Notes under the pieces: generated by a model | Databases searched by the model: none | Told to the model about the DNA's origin: nothing | What the model saw: only the letters and a program-made list of their open reading frames with translations | Made by a program: the position numbers and the translations under genes | Shown here: positions 1,358 to 18,835 of the stretch, one piece after another | Layout of the letters: every line of letters begins with the position of its first letter | Position numbering within the stretch: position 1 is the stretch's first letter | From: a virus | Taxonomy: Duplodnaviria; Heunggongvirae; Uroviricota; Caudoviricetes | Length of the DNA stretch: 18,835 bases | Virus record (IMG/VR): IMGVR_UViG_2529292922_000019 | Direction: 5' to 3' (one strand)

Positions 1358-1421
1358 GAGCGTCGTTCGCTAATCATGGTCGCCGCCACTATAGCTGGTG
1401 GGCAACGACCGGGGTTGAACA

Positions 1422-3893: not shown

Positions 3894-3985
3894 TTTGTTT
3901 TACCTCATTACAGATTTAAGGGTGAACAAATCCCTGCCATTGCTGGCATATAAGAATGAAACCGGATGTTTATTACGGAACTGTT

Positions 3986-4177
3986 TTAAAGACCTGCCGG
4001 GATTTCGTTATTATCCTGGTGAATAACTTTATCGACCGGGTAACAGTTACCGGGAATTTTCTGTTCGGTTGCTGCAGTCACACACTCCTGCATTGTCCTG
4101 TGAACACTGACTGCAATATCAACTGGCTCTCCGGAAACAAGAAAAACTGTCAGAACAAGTGCAAATGCTGTATTCAT
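3986..4177 (-). CDS. ydfD: YdfD-like small lysis/toxic peptide with N-terminal hydrophobic segment (63 aa)
   Basis: Internal ATG of ORF 3986..4231 gives MNTAFALVLTVFLVSGEPVD..., recalled as Qin YdfD. Start overlaps the dicB stop as ATGA (translational coupling). Alternative upstream starts exist at 4186 and 4231. Confidence 0.55.
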   Translation of the reverse strand: MNTAFALVLTVFLVSGEPVDIAVSVHRTMQECVTAATEQKIPGNCYPVDKVIHQDNNEIPAGL

Positions 4178-4362
4178 TGCCAGCATCCTTTTTGTATCGG
4201 ACGTAAACGGGCCAGCATTGAAAGAATGCATATTTTATTTAATAGCTCCCGTTCGTGTTTTCTCTTGTTAATGGCATCTTCAGTAAATACAGGGTTACTG
4301 ATAGTGACACCAATTTCAAAACAACCTTCAGACGTATTAACGTTTGGTAATAACGTTTCCAT
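4174..4362 (-). CDS. dicB: Cell division inhibitor DicB (62 aa)
   Basis: Internal Met of ORF 4174..4467 yields METLLPNVNTSEGCFEIGVTISNPVFTEDAINKRK...KGCWQ, matching remembered Qin DicB almost residue for residue. Lies directly downstream of DicF as in the dicB operon. Confidence 0.8.
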   Translation of the reverse strand: METLLPNVNTSEGCFEIGVTISNPVFTEDAINKRKHERELLNKICILSMLARLRPIQKGCWQ

Positions 4363-4533
4363 TATCGCGTCCTCAACAATGAATTTTGTGATGTGGTGCC
4401 TGGTGCCTCCAGGTGACGTTAACCAGTTAACAATTAACGCCGGATACAGAGAATCCACCCATAACACTGTTTTTGGTTTTAACTGTTCCGCGTGCGCTCA
4501 GCCGCATTCACCGCATCACAAAATTCACTTTAA

Positions 4534-4589
4534 AAACGGCGGCAGAGCAGTCACGGAGTAAAACTGATACCGCCAAACGTCACCAGAAA
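4534..4589 (-). ncRNA. dicF: DicF small regulatory RNA (ftsZ-targeting sRNA) with intrinsic terminator hairpin
   Basis: Reverse complement of 4537..4589 reads TTTCTGGTGACGTTTGGCGGTATCAGTTTTACTCCGTGACTGCTCTGCCGCC, matching the remembered 53-nt DicF sequence, followed by a T-run (A-run 4532..4536 on + strand). Located immediately upstream of dicB. Confidence 0.8.
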
Positions 4590-4920
4590 ATTGATAACAG
4601 AGGGCGTTGCAGCGGGGTTGTCGCTTAAGCGTATGGTCAACCTGACAACCCGGTGTCCTCAACGGGGAAGGAATAACCCCGCCATACTTACCGCCGCGCC
4701 ATTTCGCGGAGTGCCACAACCGGAAGCGCACGGTCGAACTAAATTTAACGACACCGTACAGAGAGACCAATTTCGCCGTGCGCTTTCGCGTTATGCCCTG
4801 ACTTTTCAGGGACATATCCTTTCAGTAAACTGTCAGTGCCGGATGTTCACCCGTGTCCGGCGCACGCACTCCACCTGACCCGTGGAGAACTCCTTAATTA
4901 CCAACCCTCAGGAGGGTGAA

Positions 4921-5178
4921 ATGGATAAAAAGCAAATTGAGGCCCTGCAATCTATTATTGAAAAACAAGATGAAGCTATCAGGATTCTTTCATATCGCAC
5001 TGATATGATACTAAATATGCTTTCTGCATTAACGGCTGCGCTTGGTGGTACAAAAACAAACGTATACCGCGAAGTTGTTATTCAACAGATAGATAAATTT
5101 GAAAAACCATACCAGGTATTAATGCTCATCTTGCAGAACAAGAGAAAGACCATGCTCTTATGGCAATTTCTTCAGTAG
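4921..5178 (+). CDS. Hypothetical small helical protein (about 85 aa), antisense to the leftward early operon
   Basis: Strong SD (AGGAGG, 5-nt spacer) before ATG at 4921. AT-rich. 3' end overlaps the convergent 133-aa gene by 21 nt. No recognisable domain. Confidence 0.4.
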   Translation: MDKKQIEALQSIIEKQDEAIRILSYRTDMILNMLSALTAALGGTKTNVYREVVIQQIDKFEKPYQVLMLILQNKRKTMLLWQFLQ

Positions 5179-5559
5179 CTCTCCCGAAAGTTGAGTAGTT
5201 TTAATTGTTGTTTTGAAATAATCACTGCTTTCACATTTGAGTGATTTCATGGCAATCCAAATGCGGGCCTCTGTGCCTGCATTTGGTTCCAGTTGCTGTA
5301 GACGTTTTGCGTCTTCCAAAAGTAAGGCGATAATGTGTTTCAGCTTCTCATCATTTGCTTGATTCTTGTTTTCAGGCGAATTCTGTCCGCCGAATAGGCG
5401 CTTCTCTTCATACAGACCTATAAAGGCACGACGCACGTTACCGGATATAGTATCGATGGTTTCTTTTTCTACGGTACTCAGGTCAAGAGTCGCCAGTTGA
5501 GAGCGAACCACATTCGATGCCATTTCCTGGAATGGTACTGGTAAATCTTTAAATTCCAT
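5158..5559 (-). CDS. Hypothetical protein (about 133 aa, alpha-helical), second gene of the repressor-proximal leftward module
   Basis: ORF 5158..5571; preferred start ATG at 5559 preceded by GAGG with 6-nt spacing. The ORF-track start at 5571 lacks an SD and overlaps the upstream stop as TGATG. AT-rich. No recognised family. Confidence 0.5.
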   Translation of the reverse strand: MEFKDLPVPFQEMASNVVRSQLATLDLSTVEKETIDTISGNVRRAFIGLYEEKRLFGGQNSPENKNQANDEKLKHIIALLLEDAKRLQQLEPNAGTEARIWIAMKSLKCESSDYFKTTIKTTQLSGELLKKLP

Positions 5560-5570
5560 CGTCAACCTCA

Positions 5571-5723
5571 TCAGTCAGTGTTTCTGGTTAACCAGCGACG
5601 CGCGCCAGCTTCAGTTTTAAACGTTTTGCTTCTGGTATACGTCATCGCGGTAAACGTGCCGTCCTGGTTGGGGAACACGCCACATACCAGAGATTCGTTG
5701 TTGCCAAGATTGAGCATATCCAT
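5571..5723 (-). CDS. ydfA: YdfA-like (DUF1391-type) small protein, about 50 aa
   Basis: Internal ATG preceded by GAGG-N5. Product MDMLNLGNNESLVCGVFPNQDGTFTAMTYTRSKTFKTEAGARRWL resembles remembered Qin YdfA. First gene downstream of the leftward operator region. A longer 77-aa form starting at 5804 is possible. Confidence 0.5.
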   Translation of the reverse strand: MDMLNLGNNESLVCGVFPNQDGTFTAMTYTRSKTFKTEAGARRWLTRNTD

Positions 5724-5904
5724 GTTGACCTCATTTCCCCTTAACGCCGGGGTAGCGGAACAAAAACCTGCTGCATAGTTATTAAAGTTGAACCCTGCCG
5801 TCATGTTCTTACGCCTCGGGCTGGCTACTTAACCCCTGACCACTGCCTGGTAACTCGAAGTATTGCCCTGCATTCTGTGGGGCGGGGTGGGTTGGTATGA
5901 AAAG

Positions 5905-5950
5905 AAGGATACCCATAGGTATTTAAAAGGTAAATACCCATGGGTAAATT
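5905..5950 (-). promoter_or_regulatory. OL-like operator pair (TACC-N4-GGTA palindromes) overlapping a putative leftward early promoter
   Basis: Palindromes ATACCCATAGGTAT (5909..5922) and TACCCATGGGTA (5935..5946, perfect). On the - strand a -35 TTTACC (5948..5943) and -10 TAAATA (5925..5920) with a 17-bp spacer overlap these sites. Confidence 0.45.
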
Positions 5951-5988
5951 TTTGCGGGGTCTTAACTGGTGACTAGTTGTTTGGTGAG

Positions 5989-6407
5989 CTATGATGCGTT
6001 TTGTGCTTTCTTTTTACGGATTTCTTCGTAGATCATATTGTAATACTGTTTTTTCTCTTCAAGAGTTTTTAATAATTTATCCGCTTCACTTTCTGGCAGT
6101 TCGTCTAAGAGATCTAAAAAAATACGTTGTCGTGGCGTTAGAACCCTTGTTTCATAACTGGAGGCTGTGTTCGTTGATGATGAAACGATACCATCCATCC
6201 ATCCCCGGGGTAACCCAAAGGACTCTTCGATAATCTCCACCATATCATCAGCGATCCGTTTTTTCCCTTTTTCCCCTCTGGGTACAACATTCTTGATACA
6301 TAAGAAGGCTCGCGCCCGATCTTTCTGGCCACGTTAACCGCTTTACCATCGCATTTCTCATCACGAATTTTGATGAGTTGCTGTCGTCTAAATTCATATT
6401 TGTCCAT
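5989..6407 (-). pseudogene. DicA/cI-like HTH repressor, reading frame interrupted by a 1-nt deletion in a homopolymer (possibly a sequencing artefact)
   Basis: Two overlapping ORFs (6138..6407 with the HTH; 5989..6243 with a DicA-like C-terminus LTPRQRIFLDLLDELPESEADKLL). One extra T in the T6 run 6259..6264 would fuse them into a single protein of about 139 aa. Confidence 0.65.
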
Positions 6408-6425
6408 AGGTAAATAATAGATGCG

Positions 6426-6478
6426 ATTACCGCAAGGTAAACAACCTGTGGGTATTGACTTTTGTTTACCTGCGGGTG
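6426..6478. promoter_or_regulatory. OR-like operator cluster: three TACC-N4-GGTA-type sites between the repressor and cro-like genes
   Basis: TTACCGCAAGGTAA (6427..6440), AACCTGTGGGTA (6443..6454) and TTACCTGCGGGTG (6464..6476). A -35-like TTGACT lies at 6455..6460. Same half-site architecture as the sites at 5909..5946. Confidence 0.45.
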
Positions 6479-6507
6479 TTCTTTGCTGTGTTTACTAAGG
6501 AGTAGCT

Positions 6508-6789
6508 ATGGAAGAATTAAGAATATTTCTCAATTCTCTTTCGTCAGATGAACAGCGTATGTTTGCATGCGAGTGTGGTACCAGCATCGGTTATCTAAGA
6601 AAGGCATTGAGTAAAGGTCAAGTGTTAGGGGCATCGTTATGTGTCCTTATTGAGCGAGCCAGTAATGGTGAAGTTACACGTCAGCAACTAAGGCCTTTTG
6701 ATTGGATGAATATTTGGCCCGAGCTGGAAGATACCAAAACGTTAACACAACCACTTTCTAGGAGCTTGATTCATGAAAATCAAGCATGA
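6508..6789 (+). CDS. Cro-like / YdaS-family DNA-binding protein
   Basis: 93-aa ORF divergent from the repressor, SD AGGAG upstream. Pattern ...GTSIGYLRKALSKGQ...LRPFDWMNIWPEL resembles YdaS-family Cro analogues (recalled). Confidence 0.6.
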   Translation: MEELRIFLNSLSSDEQRMFACECGTSIGYLRKALSKGQVLGASLCVLIERASNGEVTRQQLRPFDWMNIWPELEDTKTLTQPLSRSLIHENQA

Positions 6790-7198
6790 ACACATCCGCA
6801 TGGCGATGAATGTCTGGGCGCATCCGGACGGCGAAAAAGTGCCGGCTGCGAAAATTACCAAAGCGTATTTCGAGCTGGGAATGACGTTCCCGGAACTGTA
6901 TGACGACAGCCATCCGGAAGCCCTGGCCCGTAATACCCAGAAAATTTTCCGTTGGCTGGATAAAGACACCCCTGATGCTGTTGAAAAAATGCAGGCTCTG
7001 TTACCGGCGATCGAAAAGGCGATGCCGCCTTTGCTGGTGGCCCGTATGCGCAGCCACAGTTCTGAATATTACCGTGAGATCGTCGAACGGAGGGATCGGC
7101 TGGTGAAGGATGTCGATGATTTTGTTGCGTCAGCGGTTGTTTTGTATGACCAGATGAATCGCGGCGGCCCGGCAGGGAATGCTGTGGTGATGCACTAA
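6773..7198 (+). CDS. YdaT-family protein (functional analogue of cII; toxic when derepressed in Rac)
   Basis: 141-aa ORF overlapping the cro-like gene end. N-terminus MKIKHEHIRMAMN...GMTFPELYDDSHPEALARNTQKIFRW matches remembered YdaT. Confidence 0.65.
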   Translation: MKIKHEHIRMAMNVWAHPDGEKVPAAKITKAYFELGMTFPELYDDSHPEALARNTQKIFRWLDKDTPDAVEKMQALLPAIEKAMPPLLVARMRSHSSEYYREIVERRDRLVKDVDDFVASAVVLYDQMNRGGPAGNAVVMH

Positions 7199-7220
7199 AA
7201 GCACGGTGTTCGGGGGTTTT

Positions 7221-8183
7221 ATGAGCAGCAAGCTTCATGGTCTTGTCTGGGAAGGGTGCGCCTTCACCGGCATGATCTTATCCAGGGTGGCGGTTATGGC
7301 CCGTCTTGCAGACTACAGCAATGACGAGGGCGTGTCATGGCCTGCCATTGAAACTATCCGGCGTCAGATCGGTGCAAGAAGTGAATCCACAGTGAAATCG
7401 GCTATTGCAGAACTGGCGAAAGAGGGCTGGCTGACGAAGGAAGAGCGTAAGGTCGGTGGGCGTAATGTAAGCAATATCTATCGGCTTAATGTGGAAAAAC
7501 TCGAAGCAGCTGCGGCGGCGGCGCGTGAGTCATATAAACCGAAAAGAAAAATTAGCCCGGCAAAAAATGACCCGTTAACAGTTGACCCGTCAAATATTGA
7601 CCCCTCAACGGTTGACCCGTCAAATTTTGATGGATCAACTGTTGATAAAAAACTGCCGATTAGGGGGGCGATGATTGACCCCGATCCGTCAGTATTAAAA
7701 CCTGATCCGTCAGATAAAAGATCTTCTTGTCCGGACGCTTCGCAACCGGACCCGCAGACGGCTGAACAGGATTTTTTAACCCGACACCCTGACGCGGTTG
7801 TGTTCAGTGCGAAAAAACGCCAGTGGGGAAGTCAGGAAGATTTGGTGTGCGCACAGTGGATCTGGGGACGAATCGTGAGTCTTTACGAGCAGGCGGCCAG
7901 CTATGATGGCGAGATCGCTAGACCGAAAGAACCCAACTGGACAGCATGGGCCAATGACGTTCGCACAATGCGGATGCTGGATGGCAGAACTCACAGACAA
8001 ATTTGTGAAATGTTTGGGCGTCTCCAGCGGGATTCGTTCTGGGTAAAAAACATCATGAGTCCGGCAAAACTCCGGGAAAAATGGGATGAACTGGTTATCC
8101 GCCTGGGGCGTTCGCCTGCGCAGCGTTGCGTGAATCACATTTCTGAACCGGACACTGAAATTCCGCCGGGCTTCAGGGGGTAA
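7221..8183 (+). CDS. Phage replication initiation protein (O-like; N-terminal winged-helix, internal iteron-encoded linker)
   Basis: ORF 7206..8183 (GTG); preferred ATG at 7221 with G-rich SD. N-terminal HTH-like segment. Contains the direct DNA repeats at 7567..7655 that encode repeated TVDPSN(I/F)D peptides, as in lambda O/ori. Confidence 0.6.
   Translation: MSSKLHGLVWEGCAFTGMILSRVAVMARLADYSNDEGVSWPAIETIRRQIGARSESTVKSAIAELAKEGWLTKEERKVGGRNVSNIYRLNVEKLEAAAAAARESYKPKRKISPAKNDPLTVDPSNIDPSTVDPSNFDGSTVDKKLPIRGAMIDPDPSVLKPDPSDKRSSCPDASQPDPQTAEQDFLTRHPDAVVFSAKKRQWGSQEDLVCAQWIWGRIVSLYEQAASYDGEIARPKEPNWTAWANDVRTMRMLDGRTHRQICEMFGRLQRDSFWVKNIMSPAKLREKWDELVIRLGRSPAQRCVNHISEPDTEIPPGFRG
7567..7655 (+). 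repeat. Iteron-like direct repeats inside the replication gene (putative origin)
   Basis: Four tandem copies of TTGACCC(G/C)T(C/T)AA at roughly 15-bp period (7567, 7582, 7597, 7612), followed by degenerate copies and an A-rich stretch. Further GATCCGTCAG repeats at 7686..7713. Confidence 0.5.
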
Positions 8184-8223
8184 GTGTTAATTTCTGGTCA
8201 TGAGGTAATTTTCAGGAGGGCTT

Positions 8224-8646
8224 GTGGCAAAAGTTTTTACACAAGAAGAGCGGGAAAAAATTAAAGGGCAGGTTGTTGAACTCGTACGCCAGAGTGGGCG
8301 CGAGACGTTACGACAACTGGAAACTAAAACTGGGGCAACAAGATATCTGATGAGCGTTCTGGCCAGAGAGCTGGTTGCCAGTGGCGATGTATACAACTCT
8401 GGTTACGGGTTATTCCCGTCTGAACAGGCGCGTAAGGACTGGCAAAATGCCCGTAAAAAGCTCTCAAGGGCAAAGCTGAAGAAACCATCTGCGGTTGATC
8501 CGGACCTTATCTGGTCATTACCTGACGGAGAAATACGTCGCTACGACAGGCGTCAGAACATAATCTGTCGCGAGTGCCGGAAGAGCGAAGCTATGCAGCG
8601 CGTACTGGCGTTTTATCAGGGGAATTTTGAGGAGGTGGTGCGGTGA
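8224..8646 (+). CDS. Hypothetical phage protein (140 aa)
   Basis: GTG start preceded by AGGAGG. Follows the replication gene in the same orientation. No recognisable domain. Confidence 0.5.
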   Translation: MAKVFTQEEREKIKGQVVELVRQSGRETLRQLETKTGATRYLMSVLARELVASGDVYNSGYGLFPSEQARKDWQNARKKLSRAKLKKPSAVDPDLIWSLPDGEIRRYDRRQNIICRECRKSEAMQRVLAFYQGNFEEVVR

Positions 8647-8889
8647 GTGAATCAAAATGCCAGGTTAATGGCAACAAGATAGAACCATGTGCAGCACTGG
8701 CAAAGTCCCTTGAGCGTGATGCTGAATACACGATGCGAAAAGGTCTGCTGATATACAAAATCTGAAATGAGAGTTTAACTCGCGGTCCTGATTTTGTGAT
8801 GTTGCGTTCCGGTGAATTTTCTAAATTACCAGTTCGGGTTTCATTTTGTCCGTTCTGTGGTGAAAGTCTGAAAACGTGGGAGAACAGAA

Positions 8890-9201
8890 ATGAATGAAAT
8901 TAAAGAAATACCAGTAGTACGTGATGAATATGGCTGCTGGACGCATCCTGAATATGAAAAATTCTGTGACGGTCGGGAATATATTTCAACGGAAGAGTTT
9001 AACGCCTGGATGGAGGAAAATAATCTTCAATACGTCCTCTGCTTCAGAGATGAAGGATGTGCTGACCTTGATGCGTGTGATGCTGATATTTCTGCATGGG
9101 AACCGGAACGACCAGAGGGCAATGGATGGTTTATTGGTTCAATACATGACACCGAAGATGGCCCGGTTTGTGTATGGCTGAGAAATAAGGTCGAAGCATA
9201 A
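8890..9201 (+). CDS. Hypothetical phage protein (103 aa, Cys/acidic-rich)
   Basis: ATG start with upstream GGGAGAA. Same orientation as the early-right operon. No recognised family. Confidence 0.5.
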   Translation: MNEIKEIPVVRDEYGCWTHPEYEKFCDGREYISTEEFNAWMEENNLQYVLCFRDEGCADLDACDADISAWEPERPEGNGWFIGSIHDTEDGPVCVWLRNKVEA

Positions 9202-9333
9202 AGGCTATAAACCGACTAACAACTAAATACTGAAGATTTAAATCAGAAACGATTTTTATTAAATCCTTAACCGGAGGGATTCCTGCACCCTCAAATCATC
9301 AGGAGGCCGCCCGAAAGGGCGGTGGAGATAATA

Positions 9334-9855
9334 ATGGGAATAACTAAAGAACGATTGTTGGAAATAGCAAACCTTAGTGATTGGGCATTAAGTGATGAGA
9401 GAATTGTTTCTCCTCATGCTTATGAGTCAGTTACAAGTATAGAAATAACAACAATGGCTAGAATGCTGCTTGGTTATTTCAAAATAGAAAATAAAAAACA
9501 GATGGATAGTAATGTTGATATATGTGAGATTTTAGACGATTGGGGGGCTTGGGTTGTGGCTGGTAATAGTTCTATTGATTGGCAGGAAATAGCTGATAAA
9601 TATAAAAATGTTGTTCCTCATGGTAAAAAATCACGTCGTCAGTGCAGCAATGATGAAGGGCGAATTATTGACATTAGTATCCTTAGGTTAGAAAGATATA
9701 AGCAACAAGAATATGAGTTAATTGTTGCTCATTTCGTGATTGGTTTATCTCTTCGTGCTATTGCAAAGCAACAAGGATGTTCAGATGGAACAATTCGTAA
9801 AAGATTGCAAAAAGCCTTAGGTTTTTTGACTGGATATATAGCAATTACCAGTTAA
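9334..9855 (+). CDS. HTH transcriptional regulator with C-terminal sigma-70 region-4/LuxR-like helix-turn-helix (possible late-gene regulator or cargo regulator)
   Basis: ORF 9322..9855; preferred ATG at 9334 with GGAG at 6-nt spacing. C-terminus YELIVAHFVIGLSLRAIAKQQGCSDGTIRKRLQKALGFL is a classic region-4-like HTH. AT-rich codon usage. Stop codon overlaps the stop of the convergent nuclease gene (TTAA 9852..9855). Confidence 0.55.
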   Translation: MGITKERLLEIANLSDWALSDERIVSPHAYESVTSIEITTMARMLLGYFKIENKKQMDSNVDICEILDDWGAWVVAGNSSIDWQEIADKYKNVVPHGKKSRRQCSNDEGRIIDISILRLERYKQQEYELIVAHFVIGLSLRAIAKQQGCSDGTIRKRLQKALGFLTGYIAITS

Positions 9856-10493
9856 GAGTCAGCGGTTTTTTTACCAGTGTAATGGTATAAGGATACTCCC
9901 ATGTGTCTTACATGATATGGAAGCGCTGTTGCTGGATGCTTTGTGATACTCTTAAAGCGGAGGGGAGAGCCTTCCGCTTCAATTTCTGCGTCCGAAACGG
10001 TCGTAGAGAAAAATTCTTTCCATTCATTGAATTTTACTGCTGATTTGTCAGACTTTATATAAATTAGAATTCCTCCATGATCGTCACGTGACGTACCCGT
10101 GCCGTAACGTTCGGTTAGCTGAATCCAGCCATTATGAATAGATTTGGGGCCTCTCCATAATTTTGCTTCACCGATCCATTCGAATTTTCCGAATTGATGT
10201 TTAACTAATAAATCAACGTGACCGCCATGTTGAGTATCATGTTCAACATCATAAAACCTACCTTTCAGGAAATTTTTGATCGACGCTGTTAGCTCGTCCT
10301 CTCCCCACTTAGCATCTTGATAGAAGTGTTTGTCATTTTCTAAATTCTGAATAGCGTCGTCTAAATCTTCATAGAGTTGCTTTACAAAAATATTTTTGTC
10401 TGCAGCTAATTTTCTTTGAACCATTCCCCTAAATTCAGGATCCATTCTAATTAATGATTGAAGGTCTGCAGTACAGATGTTTACATCACTCAT
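9852..10493 (-). CDS. PD-(D/E)xK nuclease-fold protein (about 213 aa), last gene of the AT-rich operon
   Basis: ORF 9852..10556; likely start MSDVN at 10493, overlapping the upstream gene stop by 8 nt (ATGAGTGA). Motif ...DVEHD...GGHVDLLVK-x10-EWIGEAKLW fits the D...(D/E)xK arrangement of restriction-endonuclease-like nucleases. Confidence 0.55.
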   Translation of the reverse strand: MSDVNICTADLQSLIRMDPEFRGMVQRKLAADKNIFVKQLYEDLDDAIQNLENDKHFYQDAKWGEDELTASIKNFLKGRFYDVEHDTQHGGHVDLLVKHQFGKFEWIGEAKLWRGPKSIHNGWIQLTERYGTGTSRDDHGGILIYIKSDKSAVKFNEWKEFFSTTVSDAEIEAEGSPLRFKSITKHPATALPYHVRHMGVSLYHYTGKKTADS

Positions 10494-10914
10494 GCAGACT
10501 CTCCAAAAGACTCGAAGGAGTAAAGTATGGATAAAGATACTGGCTAAAATTATCAACCAATTCGCCAGTTTCTGGATGGTAAAAACTTCCTGTGTCTAAA
10601 GCATAGGAAATAAGATCATCTTCAACTGGTATTGGTTCTTCCGTTAAATTATCAATGTATTGAAAATGCATATCCAATAGATGTGCTTTATAGCTAGATA
10701 AATAATCAGTTGCTTTTATTAGCAGGATATAGTCATCTTTCGTATCAGTTAGATAGGTTAAACCATTGATAAGGGTTTTGTATGTAAAGTGATTGATATT
10801 TTTAGCATCTTTACTAACCAGAAAAAGAAAAAGATCACGACACACACTGCGAACAGGATCATTAAAATCCTGCTCTATTTGCGTGATAATGTCGTGATAT
10901 ATACTCTTTTTCAT
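10486..10914 (-). CDS. Hypothetical acidic protein (142 aa), middle gene of the AT-rich operon
   Basis: ATG at 10914 overlaps the upstream frame stop as ATGA. C-terminus overlaps the downstream nuclease start. Acidic, Tyr-rich, no recognised domain. Confidence 0.5.
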   Translation of the reverse strand: MKKSIYHDIITQIEQDFNDPVRSVCRDLFLFLVSKDAKNINHFTYKTLINGLTYLTDTKDDYILLIKATDYLSSYKAHLLDMHFQYIDNLTEEPIPVEDDLISYALDTGSFYHPETGELVDNFSQYLYPYFTPSSLLESLHE

Positions 10915-11201
10915 TTATGGCCTGATGATCTCGCTCTTCTTTTCTCTTCACAGGACTTAACAGAATCCAATATTTTTTCAACAATAAATATAATCGAATC
11001 AATGTTGTTACAGTTCTTCGCAATTGCTTCATGCAACCTAATTCTAGGATTATCAAGCATTGTCCTTTTTCCTGGTAATATTAACTCTACTGATAAAATA
11101 TGTGAAGAACTTTGTGGTAAATCCCAAATTTTTCCCAACTTAAACTTTGTCAATATTGGGCTTGCGGACTCTCCACTATGATGGTAAACATCTTGACGCA
11201 A
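10911..11201 (-). CDS. Hypothetical ORF; probably the C-terminal continuation of the upstream 222-aa gene rather than an independent gene
   Basis: The reading frame is open from 11363 down to 10911 with no ATG or SD (first candidate start is TTG at 11201). It overlaps the stop of the upstream gene, whose frame differs by one base at an A6 run (T6 on + strand, 11352..11357). Confidence 0.35.
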   Translation of the reverse strand: MRQDVYHHSGESASPILTKFKLGKIWDLPQSSSHILSVELILPGKRTMLDNPRIRLHEAIAKNCNNIDSIIFIVEKILDSVKSCEEKRRARSSGHK

Positions 11202-11332
11202 ACACTTTTGACTTGGTTTGAGTTTTAAAGAACTTGTATTGCCATCTGAGGTGATAAAAGATACATGAGAAATTCTGCCATCTACTTTTTCGTAAAGATC
11301 TTGTATTGAACCAAATAATTCAAGAGGATTGT

Positions 11333-12001
11333 TTAAAATAACGCCAGCTTCTTTTTTATAAATTTAGCCACAAGGTATTGTTGAGGCTGTGATTCACTTC
11401 TTGGAAGGATAGATAAATCAATCGTAAGAATTAATATTTTTTCTGCAGGCATTAGCATGATGGTATTAAAGCATTGCGTGACTTGGCGTGTTTTGCATTT
11501 TATTTCTCCACCATTAGCACGTAATTCCATACCCGCATCGCTAAGATGTGTTGGGTCAAGCTCTATCACTTCAGTGTAATACGCTTTGGATAAAAAAACA
11601 GCAGTGTCAATTTGTTTATCACGAATGATATCTTGACGTAGTTCAGCAAAATGCAGCTCAGTATCAGCAACTAACAGCTCCTCTCTGGATAAAGGAATTG
11701 GGTATTTTTCTGAGAAGGGGCTATTGTCCTTTTTCTGATTTGTGAAAATTGTTTGTAATTTTGCTACGTCTTCATCGGTGATTCTATAAATAGAAAGTAA
11801 TCGATTCCCGCTAAAAATTAAACCTTTCCAGAAATCGTCGATTCTGTCTTTTAGGTCGGGATTATGCTGAACTACACTATTTACACGTTCAATAAAAAGG
11901 GGTAATCCTTGGGCCGTTACACCCAGTGATGAACCAAGAAGCTTACGGGTGTTGCGCCAGCCAAAGCGTGAATTGATGTTTTTTACTGTTTGCTCAAGCA
12001 T
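11333..12001 (-). CDS. Hypothetical protein (222 aa), first gene of the AT-rich operon; possible HEPN-like Rx6H motif
   Basis: ATG at 12001 preceded by AAGGAAG (the ORF-track GTG at 12007 is less likely). Contains ERVNSVVQH (R-x6-H). AT-rich. If the homopolymer at 11352..11357 is corrected it would extend to about 365 aa. Confidence 0.5.
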   Translation of the reverse strand: MLEQTVKNINSRFGWRNTRKLLGSSLGVTAQGLPLFIERVNSVVQHNPDLKDRIDDFWKGLIFSGNRLLSIYRITDEDVAKLQTIFTNQKKDNSPFSEKYPIPLSREELLVADTELHFAELRQDIIRDKQIDTAVFLSKAYYTEVIELDPTHLSDAGMELRANGGEIKCKTRQVTQCFNTIMLMPAEKILILTIDLSILPRSESQPQQYLVAKFIKKKLALF

Positions 12002-12347
12002 TAACACTTCCTTAATTTTCCCTTAACAATTTAGGGTGCTAAACTTTTTTGCGCAGTTTACATAAAAAAATAGTGCGTACGCAAAAACTATCTAACATGA
12101 TGAGCTTTAACCGGGAAATTTGTATATGTTGTGAGCATAAAGTTGGCTGAGAAATCTAAAACGGGTAGAATGACTGCGGGTGCTTGAGGCTATCTGTCTC
12201 AGGCATGAACACCAAAAGGCAGATAGAGAAAAGCCCCAGTTAACATTACGCGTCCGGCAAGACGCTTAACATTAATCTGAGGCCATATCTATGCTCTACA
12301 CACGTAGGTTAGCCTCTTACGTGCCGAAAGGCAAGGAGAAGCAGGCT

Positions 12348-12503
12348 ATGAAGCAGCAAAAGGCGATGTTAATCGCCCTGATCGTCATCTGTTTAACCGT
12401 CATAATGACGGCACTGGTAACGAGGAAAGACCTCTGCGAGGTACGAATCCGAACCGGCCAGACGGAGGTCGCTGTCTTCACAGCTTACGAACCTGAGGAG
12501 TAA
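12348..12503 (+). CDS. hokD: Hok/Gef-family type I toxin (51 aa), HokD/RelF-like
   Basis: MKQQKAMLIALIVICLTVIMTALVTRKDLCEVRIRTGQTEVAVFTAYEPEE, near-identical to remembered HokD. AAGGAG SD upstream. An in-frame upstream ATG at 12291 gives a 70-aa extended ORF. Confidence 0.85.
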   Translation: MKQQKAMLIALIVICLTVIMTALVTRKDLCEVRIRTGQTEVAVFTAYEPEE

Positions 12504-12571
12504 GAGACCAGGCGGGGGAGAATCCCTCGCCACCTCTGATGTGTCAGGCATCCTCAACGCACCCGCACTTA

Positions 12572-12596
12572 ACCCGCTTCGGCGGGTTTTGTTTTT
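12572..12596 (+). terminator. Rho-independent terminator downstream of hok
   Basis: Hairpin CCCGC-TTCG-GCGGG (12573..12586) followed by TTTTGTTTTT. Confidence 0.55.
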
Positions 12597-12668
12597 CCTG
12601 GCATTCTGGTTTACAATTCGCACGCCAGCCTGAACAACTGGCACCTGCTGCGCCAGCAGAGACAACCG

Positions 12669-12947
12669 ATGGCGCACGATACCAAATTACACAATTCTGA
12701 TGATTCTGCCGTCTTTGCCAGCAGGCACGGGCGGCGTTCCCGCACTTTCAAATCTGACTGGTTCCAGCATCCCCCATGCACTGAAGAACAGGCCGAGTGG
12801 CTAATTCAGTGCTACCGCAGACACGGATACGAGATTAAGAAAGCCCTCAGCCTCGATTATCGTCACTGGATAATCTCCGTCAGGCTTCCTTACTCCGAAC
12901 GACCACCGCGTCCGTCCCGCACATTCCAGCAACGCATCTGGAGGTAA
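12669..12947 (+). CDS. Hypothetical protein (92 aa) in the position occupied by rem in Qin
   Basis: ORF with ATG start immediately upstream of the DUF968 gene. Identity with Rem not verifiable from memory. Confidence 0.45.
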   Translation: MAHDTKLHNSDDSAVFASRHGRRSRTFKSDWFQHPPCTEEQAEWLIQCYRRHGYEIKKALSLDYRHWIISVRLPYSERPPRPSRTFQQRIWR

Positions 12948-12948
12948 C

Positions 12949-13998
12949 GTGCGGGTATTACTTCGACCTGTTCTGGTACCGGAACTCGGGCTGGTGATCG
13001 TTAAGCCGGGCCGTGAATCCATGCCGGTATTCCACAATACCCGGGTACTGGTGGAGCCGGAACCGAAAAGCATGCGTAATCTGCCGTCCGGGGTCGTTCC
13101 TGCCGTTCGCCAGCCGCTGGCGGAGGATAAATCATTACTGCCATTTTTCAGCGACGAACGAGTGATTCGTGCTGCTGGTGGCGCTGGCGCATTGTCTGAC
13201 TGGTTACTGCGCCATGTTAAATCCTGCCAGTGGCCACACGGTGATTATCACCACAGTGAAACCGTCATTCACCGTTATGGTACCGGCGCAATGGTGTTGT
13301 GCTGGCACTGCGACAACCAGCTGCGCGACCAGACCTCCGAATCACTCGGGCAACTTGCTCACCAAAACCTGTCAGCATGGATGATTGACGTCATACGCCA
13401 TGCAATGAATGGCTCGCAGGAACGGGAATTATCGCTGGCTGAATTATCCTGGTGGGCGGTCCGCAATCAGGTGGCGGACGCGCTACCGGAAGCGGTATTA
13501 CGTCGTTCGCTGGGGTTGCGTGCGGAAAAAATCCGCTCAATGTACCGTGAAAGCGACATCGTACCGGGAGAGCAGACCGCCACCAGCATACTGAAACAGC
13601 GCACAAAAAATCTTGCGCCGCTGCCTCACGCCCACCAGCAACAGAACCCACCACAGGAAAAGACGGTGGTCAGCATTGCCGTTGATCCTGAGTCTCCGGA
13701 ATCTTTCATGAAACGACCTAAACGTCGCCGCTGGGTTAACGAGAAATACACACGCTGGGTGAAGACACAGCCGTGTGCGTGTTGTGGTAAGCCAGCCGAC
13801 GATCCCCATCACCTGATTGGTCATGGTCAGGGCGGAATGGGGACAAAATCTCACGATATTTTCACGCTACCGCTGTGTCGGGAGCATCACAACGAGCTTC
13901 ATGCGGATCCGCTGACGTTCGAAGAAAAGCATGGTTCTCAGGTTGATTTAATTTTTCGTTTTCTTGATCACGCCTTTGCAACTGGCGTGCTTGGGTAA
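12949..13998 (+). CDS. ydfU: DUF968 / YdfU-like protein with C-terminal Cys/His (HNH-like) motif
   Basis: 349-aa ORF, GTG start after GGAGG. C-terminal CACCGKPADDPHHLIGHGQGG...LCREHHNELH. Same length and gene context as remembered Qin YdfU. Confidence 0.6.
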   Translation: MRVLLRPVLVPELGLVIVKPGRESMPVFHNTRVLVEPEPKSMRNLPSGVVPAVRQPLAEDKSLLPFFSDERVIRAAGGAGALSDWLLRHVKSCQWPHGDYHHSETVIHRYGTGAMVLCWHCDNQLRDQTSESLGQLAHQNLSAWMIDVIRHAMNGSQERELSLAELSWWAVRNQVADALPEAVLRRSLGLRAEKIRSMYRESDIVPGEQTATSILKQRTKNLAPLPHAHQQQNPPQEKTVVSIAVDPESPESFMKRPKRRRWVNEKYTRWVKTQPCACCGKPADDPHHLIGHGQGGMGTKSHDIFTLPLCREHHNELHADPLTFEEKHGSQVDLIFRFLDHAFATGVLG

Positions 13999-14010
13999 AA
14001 GAGGTGACTG

Positions 14011-14370
14011 ATGCTCATAGATTTGGTTTTACCTTACCCGCCGACGGTGAACACTTACTGGCGACGCCGTGGCAGCACATATTTTGTATCAAAAGTCGGT
14101 GAGCGTTATCGCCGTGATGTGGCGCTTATTGTTCGCCAGCAGCAACTGAAATTAAACCTGTCCGGAAGGCCGGCAATAGAAATTATTGCAGAGCCACCGG
14201 ATAAGCGCCGTCGTGACCTGGACAATATCCTGAAGGCACCACTGGATGTACTGACGCATGCGGGGCTGCTCATAGACGACGAGCAGTTTGATGAAATTAA
14301 TATTGTGCGCGGTCAGCTTGTTCCTGGTGGGCGGTTGGGGATAAAAATCACAGAACTGGAGTATGCATGA
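14011..14370 (+). CDS. rusA: RusA Holliday-junction resolvase
   Basis: 119-aa ORF with GAGG SD. Motif PPDKRRRDLDNILKAPLDVLTHAGLLIDDEQ and overall pattern match remembered RusA. Typical position just upstream of Q. Confidence 0.85.
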   Translation: MLIDLVLPYPPTVNTYWRRRGSTYFVSKVGERYRRDVALIVRQQQLKLNLSGRPAIEIIAEPPDKRRRDLDNILKAPLDVLTHAGLLIDDEQFDEINIVRGQLVPGGRLGIKITELEYA

Positions 14371-15056
14371 ATAACCAGTATTTACAGTTTGTTCGTGAGC
14401 AACTCATGATTGCCACCGCCGATTTGAGTGGATCAACAAAAGGGCAGCTTGAGGCCTGGCAGGAGAATGCCATGTTTGATACAGGGCGTTACAGGCGTAA
14501 AAAAATCCGGTACCGCGATGAAGTGACTGGAAAAATGATAACGCGGGATAATCCACCAATCCCGGGAAAGCAATCGCTGGCGAAGGGGGCGTCAATTCCT
14601 CTCGTCAGTCCGGTTGAGTTTTTGACATCATCGTGGCGGCGGGCTGTTCTGTCTCTTGAAGAACATCATAAAGCCTGGTTGTTGTGGTGTTACAGCGGGA
14701 GTATTTGTTGGGAATATCAGATCGCGATAACACAGTGGGCGTGGAATGAATTTAATACTCAATCCGGTACCAGAAAAATTGCTGGGAAAACGCAGGAACG
14801 CCAGAAAAAATTAATCTGGCTGGCGGCGCAGGCAGTAAAAGCAGAACTTTTTGGTGGGGAAGGTTATGAATATCAGGAGCTGGCATTACTGGCGGGAGTG
14901 ACAACTAAAAACTGGTCCAAAACATTTACTCGTCACTGGGTTGCAATGAAACACATTTTTCACCGACTGGATAGTGAGGCTTTATTATTTGTAATGAGAA
15001 CACGTTCAAAACAAAAGGCGGCATTTTCAAAGCAAAGTGTTGCAAAAGTAGATTGA
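14367..15056 (+). CDS. Putative late antiterminator Q-like protein
   Basis: 229-aa ORF overlapping the rusA stop (ATGA). Position between rusA and a terminator/tRNA cluster is the canonical Q slot. Family assignment by context, not by motif. Confidence 0.55.
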   Translation: MNNQYLQFVREQLMIATADLSGSTKGQLEAWQENAMFDTGRYRRKKIRYRDEVTGKMITRDNPPIPGKQSLAKGASIPLVSPVEFLTSSWRRAVLSLEEHHKAWLLWCYSGSICWEYQIAITQWAWNEFNTQSGTRKIAGKTQERQKKLIWLAAQAVKAELFGGEGYEYQELALLAGVTTKNWSKTFTRHWVAMKHIFHRLDSEALLFVMRTRSKQKAAFSKQSVAKVD

Positions 15057-15104
15057 AAGGCATATATTTCATGCAAATCTGATATTTTGCCGATTTTGTA
15101 CGTG

Positions 15105-15137
15105 ATGGCAAAATCAAACAAAACCCGCCCACAAGCG
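15105..15137 (+). terminator. Rho-independent terminator after the Q-like gene
   Basis: Stem CCCGC (15114..15118) / GCGGG (15125..15129) with 6-nt loop, followed by T7 and preceded by an A-run (potentially bidirectional). Confidence 0.6.
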
Positions 15138-15213
15138 GGTTTTTTTGTGCCACTTATCTCGGATAGACATGGTGAATGCGCTGGTGGAGGAGATAAGGGT
15201 GATTTTTGTATGC

Positions 15214-15242
15214 TTGCAACATTGATTTCGTAACGTTATTAT
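15214..15242 (+). promoter_or_regulatory. Sigma-70-type promoter upstream of the tRNA cluster (possible pR'-like late promoter)
   Basis: -35 TTGCAA (15214..15219), 17-bp spacer, -10 TATTAT (15237..15242), about 10 nt before the first tRNA. Confidence 0.45.
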
Positions 15243-15251
15243 CCTGCGCCC

Positions 15252-15327
15252 GGCCCTTTAGCTCAGTGGTGAGAGCGAGCGACTCATAATCGCCAGGTCG
15301 CTGGTTCAAATCCAGCAAGGGCCACCA
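15252..15327 (+). tRNA. tRNA-Ile2 (anticodon CAU, lysidine type), ileX/ileZ-like, CCA encoded
   Basis: Cloverleaf folds by hand: acceptor GGCCCTT/AAGGGCC, anticodon loop CTCATAA, T-loop TTCAAAT. Near-identical to remembered E. coli ileX. Confidence 0.85.
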
Positions 15328-15328
15328 A

Positions 15329-15404
15329 CCGCCACTAGCCATCAGGAAAGAGCGTCAACCCTTTAAGTTGAGTGTGCGAGGTTCGAGTCCCCGGTGGTGG
15401 TCCA
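15329..15404 (+). tRNA. Atypical tRNA-like gene (anticodon loop CCTTTAA; weak D-stem); possibly a degenerate Arg/Lys-type tRNA
   Basis: Acceptor CCGCCAC/GTGGTGG, anticodon stem TCAAC/GTTGA, T-arm GTTCGAGTC, CCA encoded. Position 33 is C rather than U and the D-stem has only two clean pairs. Confidence 0.45.
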
Positions 15405-15417
15405 TTATCGGTATTCT

Positions 15418-15491
15418 GCGTTGTTAGCTCAGCAGGACAGAGCAATTGCCTTCTAAGCAATCGGTCACTGGTTCGACTCCAGTACAACGCG
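15418..15491 (+). tRNA. tRNA-Arg (anticodon UCU), argU/argN-like; no encoded CCA
   Basis: Acceptor GCGTTGT/ACAACGC, D-stem GCTC/GAGC, anticodon stem ATTGC/GCAAT with loop CTTCTAA, T-arm ACTGG-TTCGACT-CCAGT. Confidence 0.8.
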
Positions 15492-15507
15492 CTACACTTA
15501 TTTTCCC

Positions 15508-15533
15508 GGCTCGCTTTTGCGGGCCTTTTTTTT
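15508..15533 (+). terminator. Rho-independent terminator after the tRNA cluster
   Basis: Stem GGCTCGC (15508..15514) / GCGGGCC (15519..15525) with TTTT loop, followed by T8. Confidence 0.6.
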
Positions 15534-15619
15534 AAATGTCTCACAATTCAGACGGTTGACAGTTGTCTGTTTTGCGGGGAGTTTGTTAAGTAAGCGACTC
15601 GTCAGAACCGTATTGATAT

Positions 15620-17191
15620 TTACTGAGAGCTCAGATCAACTTTCCAGGGCAACAGATCGCGTACCCGGTTTGCCGGCCAGTCCTGGATATGTTCAATGAC
15701 GTAACGCAGCCACTTTTCTGGCTCCACATTGTTCAGACGGCATGTGCCGATCAGCGAGTACAACACCGCCGCATGTTCACCACCGCTGTCGGAACCCGCG
15801 AACATCCAGTTTTTCCGGCCTACGGCCACTCCCCGTAAGGCGTTCTCTGCGATGTTGTTGTCGATTTCCACCCAGCCATTACTGCAGTACACGTTCAGTG
15901 CATCCCACTGTTTCAGCAGGTATGCGAACGCTTTTGCCGTATCTGAGTGACGCGACAGTGTTTTCATCTGTTGCTGTATCCAGTCATACAGTGACTGCAT
16001 CAGTGGCGCGGCTCTGGCTTTTCTTGCCGCCAGACGCTGTTCTGCTGAACAGCACCGGACCTCTGCCTCGATGGCATACAGTTCACCGATACGCTGCAGG
16101 GCTTCCGTGGTGATGTAGGTGGGCGCTCTTGCATGCACATCGTGGATTTTTCTCCGGGCATGAGCCATACACGCGGCTTCCGTTATTCTGCCGGATTCGT
16201 ATAACGCCCGGTAACCACCGTAAGCATCGGCCTGAAGCACACCGCTGTAACCGGCCAGGTGATTTTGTGGATGGATACCTTTCCGGTCCGGACTGTACGC
16301 GAACCAGACCGCCGGGGGCATCTGTGAACCGGCGTTACGGTCATCACGGACGTAGACCCACAGCCGGGCTGTCCGGGTTTTACCGCTGCCCGGCTCCTGG
16401 ACCGGGACGGGGATATCATCAGCATGGACTTTACCGGGCATCAGCACATACTGGCGCAGGACGTCATACAGCGGCTCCAGCAGTTCAGCAACAGCACCTG
16501 TCCAGCGCCCCAGTGTGGCACGGCTCAGCTCCACGCCCTGACGACGGTATATTTCTGACTGGCGGTATAACGGCAGATGGTCTGCATATTTCCCGGTGAC
16601 AACATGGGCCAGAAGCCCCGCTCCGGCATAACTGCGTGCAATGGGTTTTGAAGGTACTGGTGCCTGCACGATATGGTCGCACCGGCAACAGGCCTGTTTC
16701 GGACGTTGTGTTTCGATAACCTTAAAGGCGCTGCTGATAAGCTCCAGTTGCTCTGACACATCACATCCCAGAGAACTGAGTTCACCACCACAGGCAGGAC
16801 AGCATTCCTCTTCCGGCCGGATAACCCGGGTTTCACGGGGAAGTGAGGCCGGTAACGGTTTACGGGCTGAAGACTGGCGCAGGGCGGATGGCAGTACCGG
16901 GTCATATTGCTCACCCAGCGTTTCCGCCATTTCTTCCTGAAGTGCGCTGATTCGCTCCTGTGCTTCCTGTATCTGCCGTTCGGTTTTTGCACGAAGTTTT
17001 TCTGAGCTTTTACCGAACTGCATACGTTGCAGTTTCGCAACCAGCGCCTTCAGCCGGTTGATTTCGGAAGCATAAGCCGCCACCCGCTGTGAGAGCAGGC
17101 GGTTGTATTCAGCCATCTGGCGGATGGTGTCCTGTTGCGTCTGCAACAGTGCCCGCAGGCGGGCGTTCTCATGAGCAAGTGAGGTGTCCAT
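15620..17191 (-). CDS. tnpC: IS66-family transposase TnpC (orf3)
   Basis: 523-aa ORF with N-terminal coiled-coil/leucine-zipper region and a Cys cluster, typical size and layout for IS66 TnpC. Confidence 0.85.
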
Positions 17192-17210
17192 ATCCTCACT
17201 TTACAACGGG

Positions 17211-17558
17211 TTATATGCGGATTCCAGCGCGTTCCGTTCGTTTCGGGTGCTTCCAGTTGATACCTTCAAGAAGCATGGATAACTGAGCCGGAGTAAGGTG
17301 CACCTTGCCGTCACGGGTGACTGGCCAGACGAAGCGGCCCCGCTCCAGGCGTTTGGTGAAGAGGCACAGTCCGTCACTGTCAGCCCACAACACTTTTATC
17401 TGGTCACCCCGGCGTCCGCGGAAGATGAACAGGTGTCCGGAGAACGGGTCATCCTTCAGGACGTTCTGAACTTTTGATGCCAGGCCGTTAAAGCCATTTC
17501 GCATATCGGTGATACCTGCAACCAGCCAGATACGCGAACCTGCAGGGAGAGATATCAT
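17211..17558 (-). CDS. tnpB: IS66-family TnpB (orf2)
   Basis: 115-aa ORF MISLPAGSRIWLVAGITDMRNGFNGLA..., characteristic of IS66 orf2. Confidence 0.85.
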   Translation of the reverse strand: MISLPAGSRIWLVAGITDMRNGFNGLASKVQNVLKDDPFSGHLFIFRGRRGDQIKVLWADSDGLCLFTKRLERGRFVWPVTRDGKVHLTPAQLSMLLEGINWKHPKRTERAGIRI

Positions 17559-18042
17559 CAGTGGCTGCTCCCTTTTATTTCGCGGATAAGTGTCTGTAAT
17601 AACGCCGGCGTCAGTTTACCTTTAAGCCTGAGAGTTCCGGCCGGCAGAACCAGCTCACAACACAGACTGTCGGACGGTGTATTTATCTGCTCTGGTTCCT
17701 GTGCGGGGGCCGGGATTTTATTATCCGGCTCCGGCGTTAACGTCACGGGAAGCAGTGCCGGCATATTTTTCCGGAAGGCAGCAGGCCACCTTTCCGGTAT
17801 TGATGGCGCCAGTTGAAGAGCAGGTTATCGTTGATTCCGTTTTCCCGGGCGATCTGCGCCACACAGGCTCCGGGCTGCAGTGACTGCTCCACTAAGGCGA
17901 TTTTAAACTCATAAGGGAAGTTGGGCCGCCGGGGACGTTTTTTTACCACGGGGGCTTCGGATATAACGGTGCTTTCAGGACGTACGACTGGTACCGTGGA
18001 AAATTGTCCGTAAAGGCAGGCATCAAGTTCCTGCTCCGACAT
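17558..18042 (-). pseudogene. tnpA: IS66-family TnpA (orf1), apparently split by a -1 frameshift at a T5 run (start codon uncertain)
   Basis: HTH-containing frame (..IARENGINDNLLFNWRHQYRKG..) ends at 17743, and a second frame (17558..17764) overlaps the tnpB start as ATGA. One extra T at 17765..17769 would fuse them. Confidence 0.45.
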
Positions 18043-18289
18043 GCCTGCGGGCAAAGGCCACGAAAGGCCAGCTCTCCGAAAGCGCACGAACATACTACAA
18101 ACTGTTGATTTTGGTACACCCAGGCGACGCCCGGCCACAACCCGGGGTAAATGTTCTTCAAAGTGAAGACGTAAAGCTTCAGTGATCCAGGTCCGGTGTT
18201 TCATACGATAGTGTCCATTAAAAATGATGGACATTATTTTTTGTAGAGCCGGAGGAAACAGACCAGACGGTTTTAAATGAGCCGGTTAC

Positions 18290-18506
18290 GCTCAAAAAGC
18301 CAGTGAGTCATCACAAAGTGCAGCAGAAGCTGAATTGTCAAGAAAGACGGCAGAAAGTGCAGCCGGTAATGCAGCCAGGGATGCAACGACCGCAGCAGAA
18401 AAAGCCCGGGAGTCAGCAGAAAGCGCACAGTCAGCGGAACAAAGCAGGATAGCGGCGGAAGACGCCGTAAACCGAATCCCCACCGTGGTGGGACCTCCCG
18501 GGCCAA
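18290..18506 (+). pseudogene. Orphan fragment of a side-tail-fibre-like gene (Ala/Ser/Glu-rich repeats plus GPPGP), cut on both sides by IS elements
   Basis: Frame open from the IS66 right end, reading ...AESAAGNAARDATTAAEKARESAESAQSAEQSRIAAEDAVNRIPTVVGPPGP, and runs into the IS50-like end, where a stop is created inside the IS terminus. No start codon or upstream context. Confidence 0.5.
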
Positions 18507-18835
18507 CTGTCTCTTGATCAGATCTCCTGATCAAGAGACTTCATCACCAGGTAACCCTCAACCATATCCTGAAGTCTGAACCAGCCATCCCACATGACTA
18601 CCCAACCGGGGCGACCGGTGCGTTTGCTGTCATGCCATCGCCCCAGTTTCGCCAGTTTCAGACAGGCCCATTTCAGTGTCGGCATCTGTGACGGAAGCGG
18701 TTTTCCTTCCAGCTTAACCCACAGCAGTTTCCACTCTGTCGGCGTCAGTATTTTCTCACAGCTGTCATTTTGTGTTTCTTCACTGATACCGCCCTGCCGC
18801 AGGCCCAGCACCCGCACCGCGATAAACGCCTTGAT
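18507..18835 (-). mobile_element. IS4-family (IS50/Tn5-like) element, inside-end terminus and 3' part of its transposase; continues beyond window
   Basis: 18507..18525 reads CTGTCTCTTGATCAGATCT, identical to the remembered 19-bp inside end of IS50. The transposase stop codon lies within it, as in IS50. Confidence 0.7.
18518..18835 (-). CDS. IS50-like transposase, C-terminal portion (partial, 5' end outside window)
   Basis: Frame open to the window edge. C-terminus ...LGRWHDSKRTGRPGWVVMWDGWFRLQDMVEGYLVMKSLDQEI is homologous in pattern to the Tn5 Tnp C-terminus (...LGGFMDSKRTGIASWGALWEGW...) but clearly divergent. Confidence 0.7.
   Translation of the reverse strand: MKAFIAVRVLGLRQGGISEETQNDSCEKILTPTEWKLLWVKLEGKPLPSQMPTLKWACLKLAKLGRWHDSKRTGRPGWVVMWDGWFRLQDMVEGYLVMKSLDQEI

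Follow-up and report, generated by a model that had tools for sequence, protein, structure and literature searches.

How does a lambdoid prophage come to break off, shortly behind its late antiterminator gene, in an insertion sequence (IS) with unequal flanks and a scrap of a tail-fibre gene? The question is raised by virus record IMGVR_UViG_2529292922_000019 (Caudoviricetes), whose whole stretch of 18,835 nt is referred to here as the window. The host DNA is an ompW-integrated, Shiga toxin (Stx) phage-like but stx-less lambdoid prophage of an enteropathogenic Escherichia coli (EPEC) lineage close to strain E2348/69. Behind its Q gene and tRNA cluster lies ISCro1, a member of the IS66 family, followed by a piece of tail-fibre gene and the end of a second element, ISEc13. 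Comparison with sister genomes makes it probable that ISCro1 inserted with an ordinary 8-bp target-site duplication, TTTGTTAA, and that an IS-end-anchored deletion of ~26.7 kb then reached through tail-fibre codon 183. The first-pass annotation of this DNA had attributed the missing lysis, head and tail genes to an IS-mediated deletion or recombination. This proposal is supported by an undeleted sister locus and by a distal join that is exact to the base.

The features that carry the argument are the following.

15582-15589, no strand assigned: left flank TTTGTTAA, the left-hand copy kept from the ancestral 8-bp duplication, present on both sides of the IS in sister genome GCA_900448265.1 (locus L005)

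15590-18289, minus strand: ISCro1 (IS66 family), 2,700 bp, tnpA-tnpB-tnpC, reading GTAAGCG...CGGTTAC, ends taken from five copies

15620-17191, minus strand: tnpC, DDE transposase of 523 aa (Pfam DDE_Tnp_IS66, E=4e-103; also zf-IS66, LZ_Tnp_IS66 and DDE_Tnp_IS66_C)

17211-17558, minus strand: tnpB, IS66 accessory protein of 115 aa (Pfam TnpB_IS66, E=5e-40)

17558-18234, minus strand: tnpA, split into open reading frames of 163 aa (17743-18234, with Pfam HTH_Tnp_1) and 68 aa (17558-17764)

18290-18506, plus strand: tail-fibre fragment of 217 bp, in frame, first 8 bp GCTCAAAA, codons 184-255 of a 425-codon gene

18507-18835, minus strand: end of ISEc13 (IS4 family), comprising the terminal repeat CTGTCTCTTGATCAGATCT and the last 105 transposase codons (Pfam Dimer_Tnp_Tn5)

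The Pfam domains confirm the IS66-family gene order tnpA (with its helix-turn-helix domain), tnpB, tnpC on the minus strand. Over ~2.7 kb, the element is 99.6-99.8% identical at the nucleotide level to copies that the RefSeq annotation pipeline PGAP labels 'IS66-like element ISCro1 family'. The IS66-family element reported earlier downstream of Q and the tRNA cluster is thus confirmed and can be named. A repeat-finding tool reported no IS66 terminal repeats, and the termini were set instead by alignment to five other copies, from DE17, AUSMDU00014361 and the sister assemblies. They form imperfect inverted repeats starting GTAAGCG, with GTAAGCGACTCGTCAGAACCGT at the left end and, reverse-complemented, GTAACCGGCTCATTTAAAACCGT at the right. 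The extent given in the first-pass annotation, 15534-18297, does contain the element, but the true ends are 15590 and 18289. Its left limit lay 56 bp too far out, just past the T-run of the tRNA-Arg terminator, and its right limit took in an 8-bp flank.

ISCro1 was first catalogued in Citrobacter rodentium ICC168, in which it has expanded to 24 copies (PMC3072379). The window copy resembles the catalogued element in its tnpA-tnpB-tnpC order, its 2.7-kb size, its GTAAGCG-type termini and the 8-bp duplications that undisturbed copies carry. It differs in lacking such a duplication and, as sequenced, in having tnpA frameshifted within a T-run. This run, at about 17760-17764, is one base shorter than in the sister copies, where the extra T leaves an intact TnpA of 225 aa. 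The frameshift is probably a sequencing error, because all differences from the sister copies are homopolymer length changes. Two lineage-specific single-nucleotide polymorphisms are common to the window IS and the copies in L005 and in two further sister loci, L006 and L007; the copies otherwise differ only in homopolymers.

With the termini fixed, the flanks can be compared directly. The left flank is TTTGTTAA and the right flank (18290-18297) is GCTCAAAA, so the mismatch noticed earlier stands, and the finer definition of the ends brought no matching target-site duplication to light. The absence is informative because ISCro1 copies in undisturbed surroundings are flanked by exact 8-bp repeats: TTTTCTTT in DE17, GAATGACA in AUSMDU00014361 and TTTGTTAA in GCA_900448265.1. 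It is the footprint of this copy's insertion history and not a property of the element, as a later deletion predicts. In E2348/69 (NC_011601.1), the empty site runs uninterrupted from TTTGTTAA into AAGAAACTGG.

Beyond the right flank, the 217-bp tail-fibre fragment claimed in the first-pass annotation was recovered at exactly 18290-18506. Its homology starts and stops precisely at the two IS termini, that of ISCro1 and that of ISEc13, and its parent gene is annotated 'prophage tail fiber N-terminal domain'. The statement that the late region ends at the IS66-family element needs qualifying, since ISEc13 at 18507 and the contig end that follows had been overlooked.

The ancestral state of the locus can be read from related genomes. 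Two collections were used: eight loci matched by exact Q protein, and 5,426 complete E. coli genomes searched with megablast. L006 and L007 come from the independent assemblies GCA_000249175.2 and GCA_000249055.2, and loci L003, L004 and L015 are pieces of the E2348/69 chromosome. The left junction, GGGGAGTTTGTTAA followed directly by GTAAGCG, is identical in seven assemblies. The seven make up a close-knit clade: over 11.2 kb they differ from one another by 0-2 substitutions and from E2348/69 by 12-13. The shared junction and the tightness of the clade point to a single ancestral ISCro1 insertion, which is now found in three states.

State 1, L005 (GCA_900448265.1): right flank TTTGTTAA, then a late region 99.97% identical to E2348/69; undeleted, duplication intact

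State 2, L006 and L007: right flank GCAGCATT inside nleA, L004 position 11039, same orientation; ~29.4 kb lost, a figure that leaves out the private ISEc13 of E2348/69

State 3, the window: right flank in the tail-fibre gene at L004 position 8338, plus strand; 28,269 bp lost in E2348/69 coordinates, ~26.7 kb in an ISEc13-free ancestor

To the right of the IS in L005 lie an esterase gene (DUF1737/SASA/DUF6645), a holin, a lysozyme, an Rz-like lysis protein and the terminase. In an undeleted locus, the right end of ISCro1 is accordingly expected to lead into TTTGTTAAAAGAAACTGG and on into the esterase and lysis genes. The type III effector gene nleA is cut off after codon 289 in L006 (13923-14788) and L007 (13925 onward). 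There, as in the window, the right flank begins at the first base past the IS terminus and keeps the reference orientation. Such flanks are the mark of an IS-end-anchored deletion, unlike those of an inversion or a random illegitimate deletion. The junction sequences thus indicate that deletion from this one tnpA-proximal IS end took place at least twice, independently. Aligning the flanks to a related prophage, which the first-pass annotation had recommended for sizing the deletion, yielded the lengths given for state 3.

What was lost can be gauged from the ompW prophage of E2348/69 itself (NC_011601.1, ~1,427,475-1,480,700; nleA, nleH and nleF at its right end). Window positions 1-15589 match 1427475-1443067 of that chromosome collinearly at 99.85% identity, and the match stops exactly at the IS boundary. 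The two prophages therefore agree over the 15.6 kb from integrase to tRNA-Arg. They differ in that E2348/69 lacks ISCro1 here, has an ISEc13 copy 32 bp past the site, and retains the full set of lysis, head and tail genes. After that ISEc13 its gene order is esterase, holin, lysozyme, Rz-like, terminase, capsid, portal, tail, gpJ, lom and tail-fibre genes. The part of it absent from the window is NC_011601.1 1444618-1471336.

From these comparisons we infer the following order of events. ISCro1 would have inserted once, in the spacer that separates the Q/tRNA cluster from the nanS-p-like esterase gene and the lysis genes behind it, producing the 8-bp TTTGTTAA duplication. Its tnpA-proximal end would later have been joined to codon 184 of a downstream tail-fibre gene in the same orientation, while the IS and its left junction stayed unaltered. 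The material lost would comprise the second TTTGTTAA, the esterase, holin, lysozyme and Rz-like genes, terminase, capsid, portal, tail, gpJ, lom and tail-fibre codons 1-183. ISEc13 would have inserted separately, 217 bp into the tail-fibre remnant. The outcome would be a prophage that retains integrase, immunity, replication, dicB, hok, Q and the tRNAs and that can neither lyse cells nor build particles, provided that the late genes have gone from the genome as a whole.

Two routes could give this product. The favoured one is a one-ended 'adjacent deletion', in which a transposase-bound IS end would attack a target in cis and the intervening DNA would be lost. Alternatively, a second ISCro1 in the same orientation could have entered at GCTCAAAA, after which homologous recombination between the two copies would leave an identical arrangement. 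Intramolecular transposition is slightly favoured, since two endpoints radiate from one IS end and the distal site is empty in the 5,426 complete genomes: none holds a junction of ISCro1 with GCTCAAAA, and no insertion is known at the distal tail-fibre site. IS-adjacent (one-ended) deletions have been described for IS1, IS26, IS903 and IS629 in E. coli, including in the decay of O157 prophages. The present case is like them in that the IS and one junction are kept, distal DNA is joined to the other terminus with its orientation unchanged, and the duplication is lost. It is also like them in that sister strains show deletions from the same IS end with two distal endpoints. To our knowledge, the transposition chemistry of IS66 has not been established.

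Several observations weigh against this account. The 217-bp fragment is 96.8% identical (7 mismatches) to the tail-fibre gene of the E2348/69 prophage, vs 99.85% for window positions 1-15589, and it is closer to an allele of enterohaemorrhagic E. coli (EHEC), at 99.1%. The fragment's own sequence occurs at 100% identity in 10 complete genomes. In the three that were inspected (RM14723, 2015C-4136CT1 and 2022H047), it sits in nleB2/nleC-type effector-carrying lambdoid prophages at other chromosomal sites. E2348/69 is not represented among the records that match the fragment at 100% or 99.5%, and its yegI/dgcE site, inspected for a closer tail-fibre allele, holds no prophage. The fragment may hence represent another tail-fibre allele or stem from a prophage other than this one. 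The contig to which the window belongs (AIEX01000028.1, GCA_000249095.2) is moreover a draft one that shows homopolymer errors of the 454 type. Window positions 4367-18835 are 100% identical to the last 14,469 of the 14,471 bases compared from it, which places the window's 3' limit inside ISEc13, 2 bp short of the contig end. Accessions of this series presumably belong to draft genomes of the diarrheagenic E. coli (DEC) reference collection. ISCro1 is evidently multicopy in the clade, as sister contigs break inside it, so the flanks of different copies could be misjoined. As for mechanism, the papers found to pair IS66 with 'adjacent deletion' (a Pseudomonas megaplasmid study) or the IS66 family with 'intramolecular transposition' (an Acinetobacter AbGRI3 study) do not appear, by title and abstract, to concern it. 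The mechanism is for this reason argued by analogy with other IS families.

The divergent fragment would be accounted for by a rearrangement between prophages. Here a second ISCro1 would have stood at GCTCAAAA in the tail-fibre gene of another lambdoid prophage, and IS-IS homologous recombination would have linked the early half of the ompW prophage with the other's tail end; the segment between them would be deleted or, by reciprocal exchange, relocated. In that event, the ompW prophage's late genes might persist at another place in the genome. The exact match of the fragment to nleB2/nleC-type prophages at other sites fits this explanation, and the L002 copy of ISCro1, flanked by a GAATGACA duplication, shows that the element does enter tail-fibre genes in this orientation. 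We nevertheless regard it as unlikely. Not one of the complete genomes has ISCro1 at this tail-fibre site, and the deletion from the same IS end in the sister strains stays within a single prophage. Judged from their distribution, tail-fibre alleles are clearly exchanged among prophages, so that divergence of the fragment does not prove a foreign origin or indicate a different prophage as its source.

A junction created in assembly is, in our estimate, quite improbable. In this version, the left flank of the Q-proximal ISCro1 was misjoined to the right flank of a copy in a tail-fibre gene, and the Q-proximal copy really has its TTTGTTAA duplication and intact late genes. The position of the window, as the last 18.8 kb of an error-prone draft contig, would allow this; three sister assemblies break inside the same IS, as a repeat would cause, and the junction is seen in one assembly only. 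Yet the L006 and L007 assemblies both read through the IS into one and the same non-ancestral right flank, so real deletions from the IS end do occur in the clade, and the copy at GCTCAAAA that a misjoin presupposes is known nowhere else among the complete genomes. Lastly, a simple ISCro1 insertion with misplaced ends, its duplication present and nothing deleted, has next to no probability: it drew only on the imprecise left coordinate 15534, whereas five independent copies fix the ends to the base, and it is refuted by the TTTGTTAA duplication in L005, by the empty site of E2348/69, which continues with AAGAAACTGG and not GCTCAAAA, and by a right flank of tail-fibre coding sequence.

Insertion followed by an IS-end-anchored deletion therefore stays the probable account. 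Two apparent parallels in other genomes were considered and set aside. Many EHEC genomes seemed to share the IS/tail-fibre junction; by direct BLAST, their tail-fibre piece lies upstream of another ISCro1 copy, which entered the gene ~550 bp further in and has its own GAATGACA duplication. The IS of avian pathogenic E. coli (APEC) DE17 seemed to occupy the same site as that of the window; it went in independently, within a few bases of another tRNA terminator, and its duplication is TTTTCTTT.

The right-hand boundary of the window has a history of its own. The ISEc13 portion is identical over 329/329 bp to an E2348/69 copy annotated as ISEc13, and only one end of the element lies inside the window. 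The reading we prefer is that it entered the tail-fibre remnant in a separate event, since no ISEc13 is found near Q in the undeleted sister L005. That it might be the Q-proximal copy of E2348/69 was rejected: besides the absence in L005, two extra breakpoints falling exactly at IS termini would be needed. At the E2348/69 site (L003 20183-21732), ISEc13 occupies 1,550 bp including one copy of the 8-bp duplication CTGTGCGG. A simple insertion into the remnant is expected to carry the 8-bp repeat CGGGCCAA; the far end of the element finishes in TGTGTATAAGAGACAG, and the tail-fibre gene reads AGGGGGAAC from codon 256 onward. The terminus CTGTCTCTTGATCAGATCT (18507-18525) we take to be identical to the 19-bp inside end of IS50/Tn5, and the other end, CTGTCTCTTATACACAAAT, presumably resembles the Tn5 outside or mosaic end. 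Genomes of the E2348/69 lineage hold roughly 30 or more ISEc13 copies. Another of them breaks dgcE (yegE) in E2348/69 (L015 48679-50000, from 2,263,678), an illustration of how active the element has been in the lineage.

All components of this locus, namely ISCro1, ISEc13 and the E2348/69-type ompW prophage, are known and annotated in RefSeq relatives. That prophages become cryptic as ISs erode their late regions is textbook knowledge, and the case is one of ordinary prophage decay. Its importance beyond strain-level annotation is small. The deletion would explain the defect of this EPEC prophage, which would be locked in the chromosome with its early genes kept and its effector cargo probably kept as well. 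In the clade, the Q-adjacent ISCro1 has eroded the late region repeatedly, once (in the sister strains) removing part of nleA. For annotation, the absence of a duplication is a reliable sign of deletion once a sister genome has been consulted. A more tentative possibility, which we hold to be doubtful, is that the three allelic states are a natural deletion series made by intramolecular transposition of an IS66-family element from the same tnpA-proximal end. If so, ISCro1 strand transfer can attack targets in cis, whether by a replicative or a one-ended reaction, and the series would offer a handle on the undefined IS66 mechanism. Anchored on a single IS end, it would also be a small natural data set on IS66-family movement.

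The left-hand context of the element comprises three features.

14367-15056, plus strand: late antiterminator Q (Pfam Phage_antiter_Q, E=4e-90), within the 99.85% match to E2348/69

15252-15492, plus strand: tRNA cluster 3' of Q, three genes found by ARAGORN with anticodons CAT, TTT and TCT

15508-15535, plus strand: terminator-like hairpin and T-run after tRNA-Arg, from a consensus scan (stem of 7 pairs, 6 of them G-C, then T8)

At the homologous E2348/69 positions, RefSeq annotates tRNA-Ile and tRNA-Arg. The CAT tRNA is Met according to ARAGORN and Ile according to RefSeq. Between the CAT and TCT genes, ARAGORN adds a tRNA-Lys(TTT) at 15329-15404, whose homologous position is annotated by RefSeq in DE17 and not in E2348/69. 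The short spacer from the Q-tRNA cluster to the esterase and lysis genes (window 15531-15589) corresponds to the position of stx in Stx phages. Spacers of the same type have taken three independent insertions: ISCro1 in this clade, ISCro1 again in APEC DE17 (L001 7480-7492), and ISEc13 in E2348/69 (L003 20151-20182).

Small length differences recur along the window. Relative to the sister assemblies, single-base indels fall in A/T runs of 5-7 at about 5102, 6260 and 11354 (alignment columns 736, 1894 and 6988) and also at 17765, 18237 and 18271. The three left-arm indels are common to loci L008 and L010, though L010 groups with L009 at the sole clade-splitting substitution. This pattern suggests systematic pyrosequencing errors, and frameshifts in the window are not to be taken as pseudogenes.

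Further upstream, a three-gene antisense module encoding proteins of 213, 142 and 363 aa (window 9852-12007, minus strand) lies between a second Q-like gene (9322-9855) and hokD. Its proteins have no Pfam match, with a marginal PADLOC match to PDC-S54 (E=0.0016), and the module is an uncharacterised prophage cargo operon. The gene for the 363-aa protein is split at a T-run in the window, which is probably a sequencing error; intact versions of the module are found at L005 5484-7634.

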